Source: Candidatus Eiseniibacteriota bacterium (GTDB lineage: Bacteria > Arandabacterota > Arandabacteria > Arandabacterales > Arandabacteraceae). From it: DNA of 38,836 nucleotides. Shown here one piece after another: positions 24,250 through 30,538 of this stretch; positions within the stretch are counted from its first letter, which is position 1, and every line of letters begins with the position of its first letter. Position numbers and translations under genes: made by a program. The stretch is from positions 1-38,836 of the forward strand of contig JBDRNT010000015.1 in NCBI GenBank assembly GCA_043810925.1. Reading direction: 5' to 3'. The notes under the pieces were generated by a model that saw only the letters and a program-made list of their open reading frames with translations, did not search any database and was not told the origin of the DNA.

Positions 24250-24850
24250 GTCATCCTCCTTAAGACAGAACTCAATCCAAGTGGACTATTATATACCTGA
24301 GACCGATTGTCAAGCTAAGATGAACACTAAGAGCTAATGTAGCCACAACCTCCCGCCGATCTCCCCTGATGGAGGTCGTCATGAGGAATGGGCAACGAAC
24401 GAGTGCTCATATCCATGGTACACGCGTACCTTTCGAGCACGCATATACCGCTGTGATGCTTGCACCCTTTGACTTTTCCTCAAACGGGGGTCAACCGTCA
24501 CAAGCGCCGCAAGCCCATCCAATATCGTGCGCTCCTCCAAAGAATCGGAATGAGGCCACGGGGATTCGCACACACTACGAAGGAGATCGTTTCCCCTACC
24601 GTGCACACCAGAGTTCCAACCTGAAACTCTGCAGGCCTGACAGGCCGCTCGCAACATTCTCAGGCAAGTGCACGGATGCCGTTGCCACTGCGGGAGCACT
24701 CCAGCCAGAGTTCCCGTTTGACGCAAGACGCCGCTCTCTATCTGCAAGCACCTCCAGCTTGGGCGAGCTTTATCCTGCACTGTGCAATCAGCAGGGTAAG
24801 GAAGGGTGTAGAAAAGAGTCGGCAGTCTCCTTCCCCCGTGGCCTTTCTTA

Positions 24851-24931
24851 TGGGTGGGGTCTTTTGCAGATCACAAGCGTCCCAGCGAGTTTGCGTGCCG
24901 GGCTCGCAGGTAGAACATCTGACCCCACCCA
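24851..24931. repeat. Degenerate REP-like inverted pair
   Basis: tgggtggggtc (24851-24861) / gaccccaccca (24921-24931); the right arm reads tctgacccca as in the RAYT flanks. Confidence 0.45.
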
Positions 24932-25022
24932 ACCCCCACCCCACCGAAAGCGGATCGGGGCGGGCCGGTTCGACACTGAACCGGATTGCCGGGTGTGCTG
25001 ACAGCTGACACCAGAGGTCGTC

Positions 25023-28000
25023 GTGAGATACTTGTGCAAGAATATACCCGGTACCCTGGCTGCATTCGCGGTGGTTTCGGGGATCTATCTGACAACTGAA
25101 CTGGCCCGGTCTCCACAGTTAAGTCATGGACCATCAACCCGCCTTGTAATCGCGGCCGCCGTGCAACTGGCGGTCCTCATTTTCTTGTGTATCACTGTTT
25201 GGATGACGCTGCGCAGGCACAGGCACCGTGAGATCGGCGTCAAGCGAGACCTCGATCGCGTGGGAAGTTACATCGAGACAGCAGGGGCGGCGATCGCCGT
25301 GATCGATGGCAACGAGCGAGTCACGTTCATGAATACCGAGGCCTGCGCAATCCTCGGTCGCGACAAGCACGAAGTCCTCGGCAGGAACTGGTTTGACGGT
25401 TTCCTTCCGGAAGAGACCAGAGAAGACCTGAGAACCGCTTTTCAGTTGATTATAGACGGCAGAACCGAGCTGGATAAGACCGTCGAGTACCCGGTGCTCA
25501 CGCGAAACGGCGAGACAAGGCTGATGGCATGGCATCGCACTCTGCTGCGTGACGAGAGCGGCAAGATCGTATCAGTACTGAATCTGGGCGAGGACATCAC
25601 CGAGCGGAAGCGGACCGATGACTTGAATGCCATCCTCCGTGAGCTGGGAATGGCGCTGAGCACCGTGTCCAACCTCGAGTATGGACTCAAGGTGTGTCTC
25701 GAAGCCGCTCTTGGGGCGTCGGGCATGGATTGTGGAGGCATCTGCCTCATCGATGAGACCTCGGGGGCCCTTGATCTGGTGTTTCATCAGGGCCTATCAC
25801 CGGAATTCATCAACAGTGCCTCACATTTCGACGCTGATTCGAAAAACACCAGGATCGTGATGGCCGGAAAACCGGTCTATACAACGCACGGGGCGCTCCA
25901 GGACGTGTTCGGTGTGCATCTGGCCGAGGGTGAGAGGCACGAGAGGCTTAAGGCTCTGGCCGTGATTCCGATGAGCTGCGAGGGACGGGTGATCGGTTGC
26001 GTGAACGTCGCGTCACACAAATTCAGGGACGTTCCAGTGGGATCGCACGCGGCGCTCGAGACCATCTCTGCGGAGATCGGCAGTGCGATCGTGCGACTCA
26101 GAGCAGAGCGGGCACAGCAAGAGAGCGAGCAAAGGTTCCGGGATCTGGCTGAAAATGCAAGTGAATGGATCTGGGAGGTCGATGCGGAGGGCAGGTACAC
26201 CTACTCGAGCCCGCTCGTTAAGAAGGTGCTGGGTTACGGGCCGGAGGAGGTACTCGGAAAGCACTTCTATGATTTCTTTGTCCCGGAAGAACGTGAGTTC
26301 TTAAAGCAAGCGGCGTTGGCCGTGTTCGCCAGCAAGGAGCCTTTTCGGGCGTTCGTCAACCGGAACATCCACAGGAACGGAGAGGTCCGGTGGCTTTCAA
26401 CAAGCGGTGTGCCCATTCTCGACAGCGATGGCAACCTGCGTGGTTACAGGGGCATAGACACGGATATCAGCGAGCGCAAGTGGGTCGAAGACGAGTTGAT
26501 TTGCCTTTCAAGCGCGGTCAGAGCATCGATCGATGCGATCGTGGTGAGCGATGTCCAGGGGAAGATAACCGAGGCCAACGACGCAGCTCTTTCTATGTTT
26601 GGCGCCGGTCACAGAAGCGACCTCATCGGTATGAACGCACTGGACCTGTTCGCTCCCGAAGATCGTAAGGAAGCCGCCGCCGGGCTGGATACGACCTTCA
26701 AGACCGGATACACAAGGGCCAAGGAGTATGAAATCATAACGCTCGCCGGGGCGCGGATCCCGGCCGAGATAACAACAAGTGTCATGAAAGATGTGAACGG
26801 GGAACCCACAGGTATTGTCGGCGTAGTCCGGGATATCACGGAACGCAGGCAGACCGAAAACGCGCTCAGGGAAAGCGAAGAGAGATATCGCGATCTCTTT
26901 GAGAACGCCAATGATCTAATTCAAAGTGTTGCACCCGACGGGCACTTCATATATGTCAACCGCGCATGGCGAGAGACGCTGGGCTACAGCGAGGAAGAGG
27001 TCGGGGGACTTAACTTGTTCGATATCATTGATCCGGACTGGCATGAGCACTGCAGACAAGTATTCGAACAGGTGATGTCCGGTGAGCCGGCCTGTTACAT
27101 CGAGACGGTGTTCATTTCCAGGGACGGCCGGAAGATCATCGCGGAAGGTAGCGCAAGTTGCCGAACACAGGACGGCAAACCTGTCTCTACCAGAGCGATC
27201 TTCCGTGACGTCACCACGCGCAAGTACGCCGAAGAGGCATTGCGACATTCGGAGCGGGATCTCAGAATCAGGAACGCAATTGCGCACGTCTTCCTCACAG
27301 CCCCCGAGAATGAGGTATTCACGGAGGTCATGAAGATCGTCCTGAAGGCGGTCAACAGCACCCACGGGCTCTTCGGATACATCTGTCGGACCGGTGATCT
27401 CGTGTGCCTGTCAGTCACCAAGGGGATTGTGAAAGAGGACCTGACGCTCGATGTGGGTGCAATTCTGCCGCGCGAGAAGTGGTCCGGCATCTGGGGAAGG
27501 GCACTAACGGAGAAGAGACTGGTGTGCTCCGGCCCGGCCGCAGATATCACTGAGGACCGGGCCCCCGTCTGCAAGACTGTGGCCGCACCGATCATACACA
27601 ATGACCGGGTGATCGGCTTGATAATGGTCGCCAACAAGCCGGACGACTACGACGACGATGACGTCAGACTGCTTGAGACGACCGCAGGCAACATCGCACC
27701 GATCTTACATGCAAGACTCGAAAGGGATGGCGAGGAAGACGCACGGAAACAGGCAGAGAAAGATAAGGCGGGAATACGCGCACAGCTGATCCATGCACAG
27801 AAGATGGACGCAATCGGCACTCTGGCCGGCGGCATCGCTCATGACTTCAACGACCTGCTGTCCACAATTCAGGGTTGCAGCGAGCTTGCGTTGCAGAAGA
27901 CCTCGGAGGAAGATCCCGTCAGGAATGACCTGGACCAGATACGTGAAGCGACCCAGCGTGCCGCCGATCTCGCCAGGCAACTGTTGCTTTTCAGCCGTCA

Positions 28001-28942
28001 GCAGCCGATGGAGACGTCGCTTATTGATCTCAATAAGGTGACGACAAACATGCTGGAAATGCTTGGCCGTCTCATCAGCGAGAACATTGAGGTCGATTTC
28101 CATCTTGACCCCGACCTGCCTGTGGTGCGCGGCGACAGGTCCAACATGGAACAGGTGATAATGAATCTCGTGCTCAACGCCCGCGATGCGATGCCGGGAG
28201 GCGGCAAGATCATCATCACCACCGAGAGTGTGACCCTGGATGAAAATCAATGCGCTGTCCTCGCCCAGGCGACACCCGGCAAGTACGTTTGCATCACGGT
28301 CACCGATGAAGGGATCGGCATGGACAGCGACACCCTCGAGCACATATTTGAACCCTTCTTCAGCACCAATGTAGCCGGAGAAGGCGCAGGGTTGGGTCTT
28401 GCGGTTGTCCATAGTATAATCCAGCAGCACGAAGGCTGGATAGACGCTTACAGTGAGCCTGGCAACGGCGCGACATTCAAGGTCTACTTCAAAGCTTTCT
28501 CGGCAACCATAGAGGAGAAGCACCGGGAGAAGTCATCGTTGAAGAATTACCAGGGCAACGGCGAGACTATCCTATCGTCGAAGATGAGGAGAGCGTCCGC
28601 CGGTTGGCTGCGAAGATATTCAGCTCCAGCGGTTACGTGACGACGGATGTCCCCAGCGCGGAAGATGCGTTGGATCTCTTCGAGAAGCAAAGCGGAAACT
28701 TCGATCTTGTCTTCAGTGACGTTATGCTCCCGGGAAAGAACGGAGTCGAGCTCGCCGATGAGCTACTCACGCGTAAGCCGGACCTTAAGATTCTGCTCAC
28801 AAGCGGACACCTTGATGATAGAGCTCAGTGGTCCATAGTCTGCGACAAAGGCCTCAAGTTCCTGCACAAGCCCTTCACCGTGCTCGACCTGCTTCAGGCG
28901 GCAAAAGAGGCACTTGTGCCGGCCGGTGTGGGCAGCGAGTAG
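25023..28942 (+). pseudogene. Hybrid multi-PAS/GAF sensor histidine kinase with a frameshift before the receiver domain (pseudogene or sequencing error)
   Basis: TM-PAS-GAF-3xPAS-GAF-HisKA (GGIAHDFND)-HATPase in 25023..28640. The receiver (IVEDEESVR..DLVFSDVMLPG..KPF) continues in another frame to 28942, with the break at about 28573. Confidence 0.85.
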
Positions 28943-29130
28943 CCATCAACGCAACACCCACCACAACTAAAGAACAAGGTACGCGCCGACGATAGCTATT
29001 ATGAGGACCTGTGAAGCGGTCGGATCACAAAGATACGTTGAGGATCGGCGAGTGAGTATGACGCCGCCATCGCTGACGGATACGGCGCCGCAGCCTGGGG
29101 CTCGTGAATAACCCCGGCCGAGTGAGGATG

Positions 29131-29436
29131 GGAGGTTCTGGGCATGTGTGCGTTAGTGGCTGTGTCCAGGGCATTGCTGCACCAGGCACTAGTGATCTGC
29201 ACAGGAGGTCGTCGGTGGTGTGCAGATCGTGGCCGGGGTGCAACTGCGTTATACCATGTCCCGCACAGGAGGTCGTCAGTGGTGTGCAGGACGGTATCAA
29301 AGACGTAGCCACTCTTGCCGTTCCCATACGGGAGGCGGCCACCCGGTATAGGAACATCTCTCTGTCGCCAGTGACAAGGTTGGGCACCTTATCGTTCCTG
29401 GCTCCTTCCCCTTTACCTATCAAACCCAGAACCTCC
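29131..29436. ncRNA. Candidate large structured ncRNA with twin hairpins
   Basis: 12-bp closing helix (29131-29142/29425-29436), inner helix (29155-29166/29302-29313), two 10-bp stems with near-identical 15-nt loops (29194-29228, 29258-29292), and further hairpins. No convincing protein is encoded. Strand is uncertain. Confidence 0.55.
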
Positions 29437-29581
29437 ACAGTCTCTCCTTAAAACACCTGAAGGCACAATCGAAATCGCTTCCCCTTTGAGAAAGCCATCT
29501 CAACTGTGCCTTCGACTTGTAAGTCTAAAACCTACCCGGCAAGGCAAGTCAAGTTTGTATCATGAACCAATGTCAGTCAAG

Positions 29582-29631
29582 TTATCGGCGTCTGCTCTGA
29601 CGACTTTAGCTAATTGTCTGATCTTCGTCAA
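29582..29631 (-). promoter_or_regulatory. sigma28 (FliA/SigD)-type promoter overlapping a sigma70-like promoter, copy 1
   Basis: Minus strand TAAA-N15-GCCGATAA (exact consensus), preceded by TTGACG-N17-TAAAGT. Confidence 0.75.
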
Positions 29632-29684
29632 GCGCTGAGTCCTCTTGCCTCTTTTGACACTGTCATGAGCCATCATCAATCAAC

Positions 29685-29734
29685 TTATCGGCGCGCGCCG
29701 CCGTGACTTTAGCTGATTGTGCGATTTTCGTCAA
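29685..29734 (-). promoter_or_regulatory. sigma28-type promoter overlapping a sigma70-like promoter, copy 2
   Basis: Same architecture 103 bp away: TTGACG-N17-TAAAGT and TAAA-N15-GCCGATAA, with diverged spacers. Confidence 0.75.
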
Positions 29735-29797
29735 GTAGAGACTATGCTTGCCGGCTTTGACAGGCGATTGCGGGTTATGGCAGTGTAGCCGGATCCG

Positions 29798-30538
29798 TCA
29801 AACCTGCTCTTCGAGTATGGCTTCGAGCCGCTGTCTGAGCTCCCCGAGTTCCTTTGACTTAAAGGAACTCTTGGTTTTCTTAAGGCCCTCGACGGTTTCC
29901 CTTAAGACCCCAATCAGGGTGTTCATCCTCGGACAGTCGAGCAGATGGCATACGTTCTGGTCATCCGTCAGTTTTGCAAGAGCCTCGGTGACATTCTTAA
30001 GACTGGTCAGGCTCAGGACAATGTTGTTGAGTGTCACGGTAACGAATGACTCGACAGGCACGAGACCGATACCGGCTGGGTTGTCCTTAAGCACCACTCT
30101 CATTCGCTCGAGCTTACCATGCCATTCCTGCAAGTGATTCTGAGTGCTCTCAAGCGCCTGGTAGACTCTGGCTCGCTCTACCGCCTCGTTCACATGAGAG
30201 ATCAGCTCGCTGAAATCGATGGGCTTGACCAGGTAGGCCACGACCGGAAGACCGATCGCCTCGATTGCCGATCCCATCGACGGATATCCCGTCACCAGGA
30301 TGACCTGAAGGCCGTGGCTTTTCTCCTTCACCTCTTTGACCAGCTCCAGTTCCGGATTCCCCGGCATCTTGATATCCGCAACAAGCAGGTCATACCGGTT
30401 CTCCCGAAGCTTCTGGGCGGCCGAAGGGCCGTCGGGTACACAATCACAGTAATAACCCTCCCTACGCAGGAGGTCGGCGGTCGAAGAGAGGAACACATCC
30501 TCGTCATCTGCAATAAGAATCCTCCCCAACTCCTCCAT
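29798..30538 (-). CDS. Response regulator (REC plus unrecognised helical C-terminal domain)
   Basis: ILIADDED, DLLVADIKMPG, LVTGYPS, YLVKP. ATG 30538 follows AGGAGG. Confidence 0.88.
   Translation of the reverse strand: MEELGRILIADDEDVFLSSTADLLRREGYYCDCVPDGPSAAQKLRENRYDLLVADIKMPGNPELELVKEVKEKSHGLQVILVTGYPSMGSAIEAIGLPVVAYLVKPIDFSELISHVNEAVERARVYQALESTQNHLQEWHGKLERMRVVLKDNPAGIGLVPVESFVTVTLNNIVLSLTSLKNVTEALAKLTDDQNVCHLLDCPRMNTLIGVLRETVEGLKKTKSSFKSKELGELRQRLEAILEEQV

Follow-up and report, generated by a model that had tools for sequence, protein, structure and literature searches.

A conserved twin-hairpin RNA domain of Candidatus Eiseniibacteriota with loops complementary to the ribosome-binding sites of a sigma-28-type kinase regulon

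Analysis of a 38,836-nt stretch of DNA from Candidatus Eiseniibacteriota (GenBank assembly GCA_043810925.1, contig JBDRNT010000015.1; the whole stretch is called the window) revealed a structured RNA domain of about 300 nt at positions 29131-29436 that carries two hairpins with nearly identical tops. Read on the minus strand, the loops of both hairpins contain GACGACCUCC, the exact complement of GGAGGUCGUC. The latter is an extended Shine-Dalgarno (SD) sequence heading PAS/GAF kinase/regulator operons with sigma-28-type promoters, including the operon that converges on the domain (24371). Loops and sites changed together in three genera. The domain is a real, conserved non-coding RNA of a new family and is probably abundant. 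That it acts in trans on ribosome-binding sites and represses the sigma-28-type kinase/regulator regulon is, if narrowly, the probable reading. This role for the loops goes beyond an earlier sequence-only reading of the DNA, in which the region was described as a candidate non-coding RNA presenting the same loop twice.

The source genome (G000; 3.85 Mb, 91.7% complete) was analyzed together with other genomes of its phylum, giving 13 genomes of the family and five others (18 in all). G001 (86% complete) is the sole other compared species of the same genus (g1), and G007, G008, and G010 (the last 85% complete) represent three further genera of the family.

Structure, conservation, and strand of the domain

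The following features make up the domain.

29131-29436, minus strand favored but unproven: twin-hairpin RNA domain closed by helix P1 (fold z-score, conservation edge, RNA-library contig)
29425-29436, minus strand: 5' arm of P1, GGAGGUUCUGGG on the RNA strand (inverted-repeat finder, covariation with G007 and G010)
29131-29142, minus strand: 3' arm of P1, CCCAGAACCUCC, a third ACCUCC element held in the helix (mean unpaired probability, 0.002)
29258-29292, minus strand: first hairpin on the RNA strand, with loop CCACUGACGACCUCC at 29268-29282 (fold, repeat finder; loop unpaired probability, 0.947)
29194-29228, minus strand: second hairpin on the RNA strand, on a longer stem, with loop CCACCGACGACCUCC at 29204-29218 (loop unpaired probability, 0.956)

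Direct reading and a repeat finder confirmed the perfect outer helix claimed earlier, a 12-nt inverted repeat, GGAGGTTCTGGG / CCCAGAACCTCC, with 100% complementarity between 29131-29142 and 29425-29436. The 5' arm of this helix resembles the target ribosome-binding site. The stem GATCTGCACA / TGTGCAGATC (29194-29203 and 29219-29228) is likewise fully complementary over 10 nt, with 15 nt between its arms, and the near identity of the two hairpin tops was borne out by a 27-nt direct repeat, GCACAGGAGGTCGTC[G/A]GTGGTGTGCAG, at 29199-29225 and 29263-29289 (26/27 nt, 96%; spacing, 64). Two claims held on one strand only. The second nested helix, agtggctgtgtc/gacgtagccact, has 12 bp on the plus strand, two of them wobbles, and is broken into 7 bp, a 2x2 internal loop, and 3 bp on the minus strand. 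The lower stems, which differ between the hairpins and had been said to pair nonetheless, pair fully on the minus strand. There the gtcccgcaca/tgtgcaggac stem, that of the first hairpin on the RNA strand, contains a U.G wobble; on the plus strand, where it forms the second hairpin, this pair is a C.A mismatch. The further hairpins that had been noted appeared in the minus-strand fold at about 29367-29402 and 29320-29355.

Folding energies were compared with those of 100 shuffled sequences per strand and with a second, independent shuffle set. The minus strand folded at -138.5 kcal/mol (z-score, -5.93), which none of the 100 shuffles equaled; the plus strand folded at -129.1 kcal/mol (z-score, -1.79; 4 of 100 shuffles as good), a weak signal. 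Both minus-strand loops read CCACYGACGACCUCC and were predicted to be open, with an unpaired probability of about 0.95. Searches against Rfam (version 15) returned no match at the gathering score anywhere in the window, the tmRNA, RNase P, 6S, SRP, riboswitch, Csr/Rsm, and alpha-r14 families included, in line with the earlier failure to recognize a known family. A wider pass over 28900-29850 with E values up to 10 returned only mir-8536 (26 bits versus a cutoff of 100, on the hairpin of the neighboring element R1, described below) and sR33 (14.7 versus 37), both outside the twin hairpins.

The domain locus was present in 5 of the 13 family genomes, representing four genera, and in none of the five other genomes of the phylum, as judged by a search for R1 and by BLAST. 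The G001 orthologue is 90% identical over 630 nt; identity between G000 and G001 is about 96% from the proximal promoter exactly to the outer end of P1 and collapses a few bases beyond it. In G007, G008, and G010, the orthologous regulator gene is followed by sigma-28-like -35 and -10 elements, R1 (about 105 nt), and then a structured region holding hairpins with GACCUCC in their loops. P1 of G007 (GGAGGCUUUGGG/CCCGGAGCCUCC) differs from that of G000 (GGAGGUUCUGGG/CCCAGAACCUCC) by compensatory and wobble changes. G010 keeps P1, as GGUGGAGGUUCCUC/GGGGAACCUCCGCC, and one hairpin; G008 has both hairpins but neither P1 nor the 5' sub-domain. This large sub-domain, like the long composite stems, is conserved between g1 and the genus of G007. 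Retention of both loops in G008, and of one in G010 and in the paralogues, indicates that the loops are the constant part of the RNA. BLAST searches with the G007 and G010 domains against all 18 genomes revealed no further orthologues; the sole extra match (G005:C23) was rejected because it falls in ribosomal protein genes.

A short paralogue of about 134 nt, consisting of P1 and one such hairpin, was found in G000 (contig C161) and in G001 (contig C138), and its hairpin stem shows a G-C to A-U double change. The full domain gave a single match in its own genome. The hairpin motif occurs three times each in G000 and G001, twice in the locus and once in the paralogue.

Evidence for expression came from a groundwater metatranscriptome. 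Run X1 contained roughly one-tenth of the words of a 3-kb query and yielded a 292-nt contig of depth 43 that covers 29130-29421 without differences; a second contig, of 205 nt and depth 3.9, falls within the kinase gene. The deeper contig coincides with the P1-bounded domain, which supports a discrete, abundant species but not its direction. X1 contigs gave no cover on R1 (29444-29554) or the promoters, and runs X5 and X6 gave none on the domain, which is uninformative either way; run X3, possibly a DNA library, gave only pieces at 90 to 95% likeness, attributed to relatives. The absence from Rfam, the same architecture in four genera, the lack of a coding signal, and the RNA-library contig together support the earlier proposal of a non-coding RNA that shows the same loop twice.

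The sequence-only reading had left the strand undecided, and the evidence now leans, without proof, to the minus strand, which is likely to be the RNA strand. In our own shuffles, minus/plus z-scores were -6.2/-1.7 for G000, -6.3/-1.8 for G001, and -2.9/-1.2 for G010. Promoters and R1 lie immediately upstream on this strand in all five orthologues, with R1 at most about 30 nt from the domain in each. All four G000/G001 differences within minus-strand helices are A-U/G-U exchanges that keep the pair. On the plus strand, A.C mismatches would replace the wobbles that occur in three hairpin stems and in the P1 helices of G001, G007, and G010. RNAalifold on G000 plus G001 found pair-keeping partners for the differences on both strands; its minus and plus energies were -135.4 and -119.7 for the main copy and -48.8 and -66.5 for the paralogue.

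Loop complementarity to ribosome-binding sites and its possible meanings

Two sites on the converging strand of the window are concerned.

24334-24383, plus strand: proposed target, consisting of a sigma-28-like promoter, 8 nt, GGAGGTCGTC, and the ATG of a 206-aa gene (pattern and site search)
25013-25025, plus strand: ribosome-binding site of a 1205-aa PAS/GAF histidine kinase, AGAGGTCGTCGTG (one mismatch to the loop complement)

The sequence GGAGGTCGTC occurs 21 times in the G000 genome, compared with about 7 occurrences expected from length alone; two of the 21 are the locus itself. Several stand directly before start codons and exactly 8 nt after sigma-28-like -10 boxes. One is the site at 24371, and four lie in a hybrid kinase/regulator cluster on C161 that also carries the paralogue. 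Stereotyped units, each with sigma-28-like -35 and -10 elements, exactly 8 nt, GGAGGUCGUC, and a start codon, were seen at 24334-24383 and at G000:C161:71051-82609. From this spacing, the leaders of the mRNAs must be only about 10 nt long. Also on C161, a short open reading frame (ORF) of about 43 codons (L012 1093-1222, minus strand) with a sigma-28-like promoter and GGAGGTTGTC precedes a gene for a 447-aa PAS kinase and stands back to back with the paralogue RNA.

A non-circular search was performed in the five genomes with the pattern CTAA-n16-20-CGA-n11-GGAGG-n3-9-RTG, in which the bases after GGAGG were left free. G000 yielded seven sites, four of them with GGAGGTCGTC, together with GGAGGTCGTT and GGAGGTTGTC, which have one change each. 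G007 yielded six sites, five with GGAGGTCACC, and all four sites of G008 carried GGAGGTCATC; a reversed-pattern control returned 0, 2, and 0 sites in G000, G007, and G008, respectively. The loops are GACGACCUCC twice in G000, GGUGACCUCC twice in G007, and GAUGACCUCC and GGUGACCUCC in G008. The G007 loops GGUGACCUCC thus correspond to sites GGAGGUCACC and the G008 loop GAUGACCUCC to sites GGAGGUCAUC. This genome-by-genome match indicates that loop and site change together in three genera. Contiguous complementarity extends over 11 nt in G000, 12 nt in G008, and 15 nt in G007 (AUG included). In the same three genera a matching site lies upstream on the converging strand (G000, 24371; G007, C2:37063 and 38538; G008, C83:49543). 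In G007, 8 of the 15 GGAGGTCAYC-start sites are on the RNA-bearing contig, one being the RNA's own hairpin, compared with none in the control.

The extension is rare outside these units: TCGTC follows GGAGG at only 8 of 2,104 SD-plus-start-like sites in the whole of G000. The 16S tail reads GGAUCACCUCCUUUCU, and the sites depart from its complement at positions 7 and 8, where the loops still match them; over positions 7 to 10 the site does not follow that complement. Given this departure, the RNA would select this regulon rather than all mRNAs. An accessible region that is complementary to the SD sequence and start and that co-varies with them, as looked for in small RNAs (sRNAs) directed against ribosome-binding sites, was therefore found.

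In the mechanism favored here, an RNA of about 300 nt would be made from the minus strand, most likely co-transcribed from two sigma-28-type promoters through R1 by read-through. The precursor would be trimmed to the P1-closed domain, with P1 and the compact fold protecting the product. The two exposed 15-nt loops carrying GACGACCUCC would pair with the leaders of about 10 nt and block the 30S subunit, and P1 may act as an internal copy of the loop-site duplex that keeps the third ACCUCC masked. With the same sigma factor driving regulon and repressor, the arrangement would amount to a feed-forward brake.

A number of observations weigh against this mechanism. The z-scores hardly differ between the strands in G007, G008, and the paralogues, an automatic count of wobbles beside helices common to both strands gave 22 versus 22, and the plus strand gives better pairing for P2 of g1 and for the paralogue P1. 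In G007, G008, and G010, the R1 hairpin ends in six U residues, like a strong terminator, only about 20 to 30 nt before the domain, and no separate promoter was found for the domain. In G008, the stop codon of the converging regulator gene directly borders the domain. The RNA-library contigs are unstranded, and DNA can be present in RNA libraries. Hfq was not found in the five RNA-bearing genomes. Concerning the targets, G010 carries the loop, yet neither of its two sigma-28-like sites matches; G001 has only one matching site, found by a second pattern; and the complement of the paralogue loop, GGAGGCAGTC, showed no evident promoter-linked target among its 15 occurrences. When 13,134 SD-plus-start candidates were ranked by duplex energy, a measure that proved unspecific, G-rich unrelated sites came out on top and the proposed targets did not.

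The RNA might instead be a stable structured molecule with another role, either a protein-binding scaffold or a read-through product of the R1 terminator that reports the activity of R1 or the regulator. In that case, common descent would account for the match between loops and ribosome-binding sites as a side effect: the hairpins would have arisen as copies of a 5' leader. The 5' sub-domain and composite stems kept in two genera are not needed for simple antisense, P1 hides the third ACCUCC, and the linkage to R1 and the orphan regulator gene is tight, all of which would suit such a role. Descent alone, however, does not explain why loops and sites still match after both have changed in three genera, and the orthologues of G008 and G010 and the paralogues retain loops while losing other parts. 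This alternative is unlikely, though it retains real weight.

The principal rival, the reverse of the favored model, is a plus-strand RNA. It would be the 3' untranslated end of the converging operon, with loops that copy the ribosome-binding site (CAGGAGGUCGUC...) and titrate a factor, most plausibly CsrA. CsrA binds GGA in hairpin loops, with two sites per dimer, as in CsrB/RsmZ. The plus-strand loops read CAGGAGG, which we take to resemble the CsrB repeat CAGGA(U/A/C)G. CsrA genes are present in four of the five RNA-bearing genomes, the G000 copy lying 2.3 kb from a FliA/WhiG-family sigma gene (both within G000:C36:35006-38160). The paralogue stands about 20 nt behind the stop codon of a hybrid kinase gene in both G000 and G001, with a differing other flank. 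The equal z-scores, the better plus-strand pairing of P2 and the paralogue P1, the stop codon at which the G008 domain begins, and the unstranded contig listed above favor this explanation as well. On the other hand, the plus-strand fold of G000 and G001 barely beats shuffled sequences (z-score, -1.8), and neither a terminator nor a promoter was found for the plus strand. Known CsrA sponges display many GGA hairpins, whereas only two are displayed here. CsrA sites are short, so that a conserved protein would not require its site to be identical over 10 to 15 nt as far as the start codon, nor to vary concertedly in three genera. Few functional CsrAs of the hag type are predicted for Eisenbacteria, in a model prediction given in the available part of PMC13443453. 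Titration of CsrA is accordingly rather unlikely.

That there is no RNA gene at all is highly improbable: although a 137-codon ORF (29025-29438) with an upstream AAGGAG spans the region, it showed no codon-level conservation (the 14 G000/G001 differences, of which 6 are synonymous and 8 nonsynonymous, fall 3/5/6 by codon position), within the genus no frame of the six is better "conserved" than the others, and none is similar between g1 and the genera of G007 and G008, the two identical hairpin tops are read in different frames, and Pfam gave no match, while the presence of one full copy and one short paralogue per genome in G000 and G001, with no dispersed copies, rules out a mobile repeat such as a miniature inverted-repeat transposable element.

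R1, the orphan response regulator, and the sigma-28-type promoters

Upstream of the domain on the minus strand, four features were delineated.

29444-29554, minus strand: R1, a small hairpin plus a long terminator-like hairpin, directly upstream of the domain (R1 model, 102.7 bits)
29582-29608, minus strand: proximal sigma-28-type promoter, TAAAGTCG-n11-GCCGATAA (consensus match)
29685-29711, minus strand: distal sigma-28-type promoter, TAAAGTCA-n11-GCCGATAA (in a 103-nt tandem duplication of the promoter unit)
29801-30538, minus strand: orphan response regulator with a receiver and a helical C-terminal domain (elsewhere usually followed by R1)

The strong minus-strand promoters of the sequence-only reading are present. 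A simple scan read both as sigma-70-like, but the sigma-28 type (TAAAGTNN-n11-GCCGATAA) fits much better; the consensus is TAAAGTTT-n11-GCCGATAA in the available part of PMC2859248. To judge from their sequence, they would be used by a sigma factor of the FliA/WhiG family. The G000 gene of this family scored 271 bits (cutoff, 189.6), and no flagellin domain was found in the 91.7% complete genome. At 29560-29762, the entire promoter unit, together with about 25 nt of what is transcribed from it, is duplicated in tandem with a period of 103 nt (74 to 81% identity), in G000 and G001 alike.

In R1, a small hairpin framed by GCCUUGYCGGG...CAAGUCGAAGGC precedes a long one, at the end of which a U-run is usually found. 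As the first bases of the long hairpin, AAGGC, can alternatively bind the GCCUU farther upstream, the sequence would allow a choice between terminator and antiterminator. R1 gave no Rfam match in the window or in nine R1 loci of other phyla, although RNA-motif lists in the supplements of papers could name it. A pattern scan with one genome per species revealed 51 loci, and the R1 model gave 44 matches (E values of at most 1.6e-5) in 36 of these loci. The loci belong to many phyla and often contain two to three copies; still, R1 is rare, and a broad sample of 133 genomes from other phyla had it in only one. Across 68 aligned matches, 94.5% of cells pair versus 79.9% after shuffling, and 21 of 27 pairs changed on both sides. 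The covariation score was 0.473, compared with 0.224 for shuffles and at most 0.10 for slid registers, in an alignment fitted to the R1 model, which flatters covariation.

Relatives of the regulator were found in metagenome contigs (424). When 80 metagenome loci were fetched by the regulator protein alone, R1 started at most 300 nt downstream in 38 of them by hand count, several of the 80 ending too soon for its presence to be judged. Twin CCUCC-loop hairpins were seen in none of the 62 metagenome loci whose sequence extended 300 nt or more past the regulator gene. R1 thus usually stands just downstream of this orphan regulator gene family (the window, L020-L070, and L108-L187) and after a promoter of the sigma-28-like pattern, which the sequence upstream often fits. 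Judged by eye from their N termini, the genes downstream of R1 include some for regulators of the same family and for chemoreceptor-, CheW-, and CheA-like proteins and, further on, one for a gas-vesicle protein. In six loci (L147, L155, L131, L150, L119, and L117), R1 is followed by further terminator-ended non-coding stretches and then by a gene beginning MAVEKxIGSSSLVEVIDRILDKG, whose product is presumably the gas-vesicle protein GvpA.

The C-terminal half of the regulator comprises about 130 aa, is all-helical, and contains the conserved motifs CxLLxCP and KSKxxFKSKELxxLR; the mean predicted local distance difference test score of the model is 82.5 and is lower in this half. Beyond the receiver, no Pfam or NCBIfam family matched, and no ANTAR match was obtained in 59 members. 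Sequence matches in the PDB covered the receiver only. Foldseek matches were likewise driven by the receiver; the ANTAR proteins EutV and Rv1626 were among them, with poor overall superposition.

The linkage of R1 to sigma-28-type promoters and to one regulator family with an unassigned output domain makes it a candidate new regulatory RNA or attenuator. The two new RNAs might form one circuit, in which R1, as a widespread attenuator under a sigma-28-type promoter, would gate the anti-SD RNA of about 300 nt and be read by the adjacent orphan regulator through a new RNA-binding output domain, while a genus-specific SD extension (GUC, ACC, or AUC after GGAGGUC) would be common to regulon and RNA. 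Taken jointly, these proposals are doubtful; if they are true, a whole sigma regulon would be silenced at the ribosome with other mRNAs untouched.

The flanks of the domain proved to be two convergent kinase/regulator units, as had been claimed. On the plus strand, the 206-aa gene without a known family (24381-25001), the gene for the 1205-aa PAS/GAF histidine kinase (25023-28640), and a receiver ORF (28604-28942) run toward the domain. The minus strand contributes a gene for a 1106-aa PAS/GAF kinase and then that of the receiver protein with the unassigned C-terminal half (29801-30538). The receiver ORF starts at position 15 of the receiver profile and shares 37 nt, in a different reading frame, with the 3' end of the 1205-aa kinase ORF. 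This gives the appearance of a single hybrid kinase divided by a frameshift, which may be genuine or an assembly error; on C161, the paralogous kinases are undivided hybrids. A retron, considered on account of the inverted-repeat arms, was rejected, as the neighbors are kinases and regulators and not a reverse transcriptase.

Comparison with known systems

If the favored mechanism holds, the domain would be the first RNA regulator on record in Eisenbacteria, an uncultured phylum for which a literature search found nothing relevant. It would also offer a clear natural example in which the seed of an sRNA changes in step, from genus to genus, with the ribosome-binding sites belonging to an entire promoter class, and would imply that an extended SD sequence can serve as the address label of a regulon. 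R1 is a well-supported structured RNA absent from Rfam and, as stated, a candidate regulator or attenuator. Both RNAs are short, self-contained, and amenable to a heterologous host.

Several known RNAs resemble the domain in part. In the CsrB/RsmZ sponges, the likeness would apply if the plus strand were transcribed: the two GGA loops exist only in that case, and CsrA is encoded in the genome. In contrast to those sponges, the domain has only two such hairpins, a weak plus-strand fold in g1, and a long, exact, co-varying match. Sigma-28-dependent sRNAs of enterobacteria and Campylobacter, such as FliX, MotR, and CJnc170, feed back on the regulon of their sigma factor, according to the available parts of PMC10578931 and PMC11187230. 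As described there, they act on flagellar genes, whereas the regulon in question here consists of sensor kinases and regulators, in a genome in which no flagellin domain was found. Staphylococcus RNAIII is a looser analogue: in this large RNA with multiple hairpins, C-rich loops (UCCC) initiate pairing with the ribosome-binding sites of several mRNAs (PMC4615179, available part). It is unrelated in sequence and fold, and the complementarity of the domain extends over 10 to 15 nt and is tied to one promoter class.

The closest likeness considered is to the cuckoo RNAs of alphaproteobacteria (alpha-r14; RSs0680/CcsR, NfeR1). The available parts of PMC4615179 and PMC10746234 describe several hairpins with the same anti-SD loop, CCUCCUCCC, and compensatory stem changes, and report that NfeR1 silences the mRNA of the kinase gene ntrB of a two-component system via its anti-SD loops. 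Repeated anti-SD loops, proposed pairing with ribosome-binding sites, and a kinase mRNA as target, proposed in the case of the domain, are common to both. The differences are substantial. Instead of the cuckoo motif CCUCCUCCC, the loops of the domain follow the genus-specific form (G)RYGACCUCC, reading CCACYGACGACCUCC in g1, ..GGUGACCUCCA.. in the genus of G007, and ..GAUGACCUCCA.. in that of G008. Cuckoo RNAs, in the same sources, consist of 2 to 4 adjacent hairpins, whereas the hairpins of the domain are nested within P1 and accompanied by the 5' sub-domain in a multi-helix fold of about 300 nt, the closing helix of 12 to 14 bp hiding the third motif. The two kinds of RNA come from different phyla and are not similar in sequence, and the domain has no Rfam match. 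The sigma-28-type promoter and the match to a private SD extension have no counterpart in the available parts of the cuckoo descriptions (PMC4615179, PMC10746234). On the best reading, the domain would work like the cuckoo/NfeR1 sRNAs without being a member of that group. It represents a new RNA family whose likeliest job is of a known kind, that of sRNAs with anti-SD loops, and it is set apart by a private SD extension, common to it and a sigma-28-type kinase regulon and co-evolving in both, by its large closed fold, and by its coupling to a second RNA, R1.

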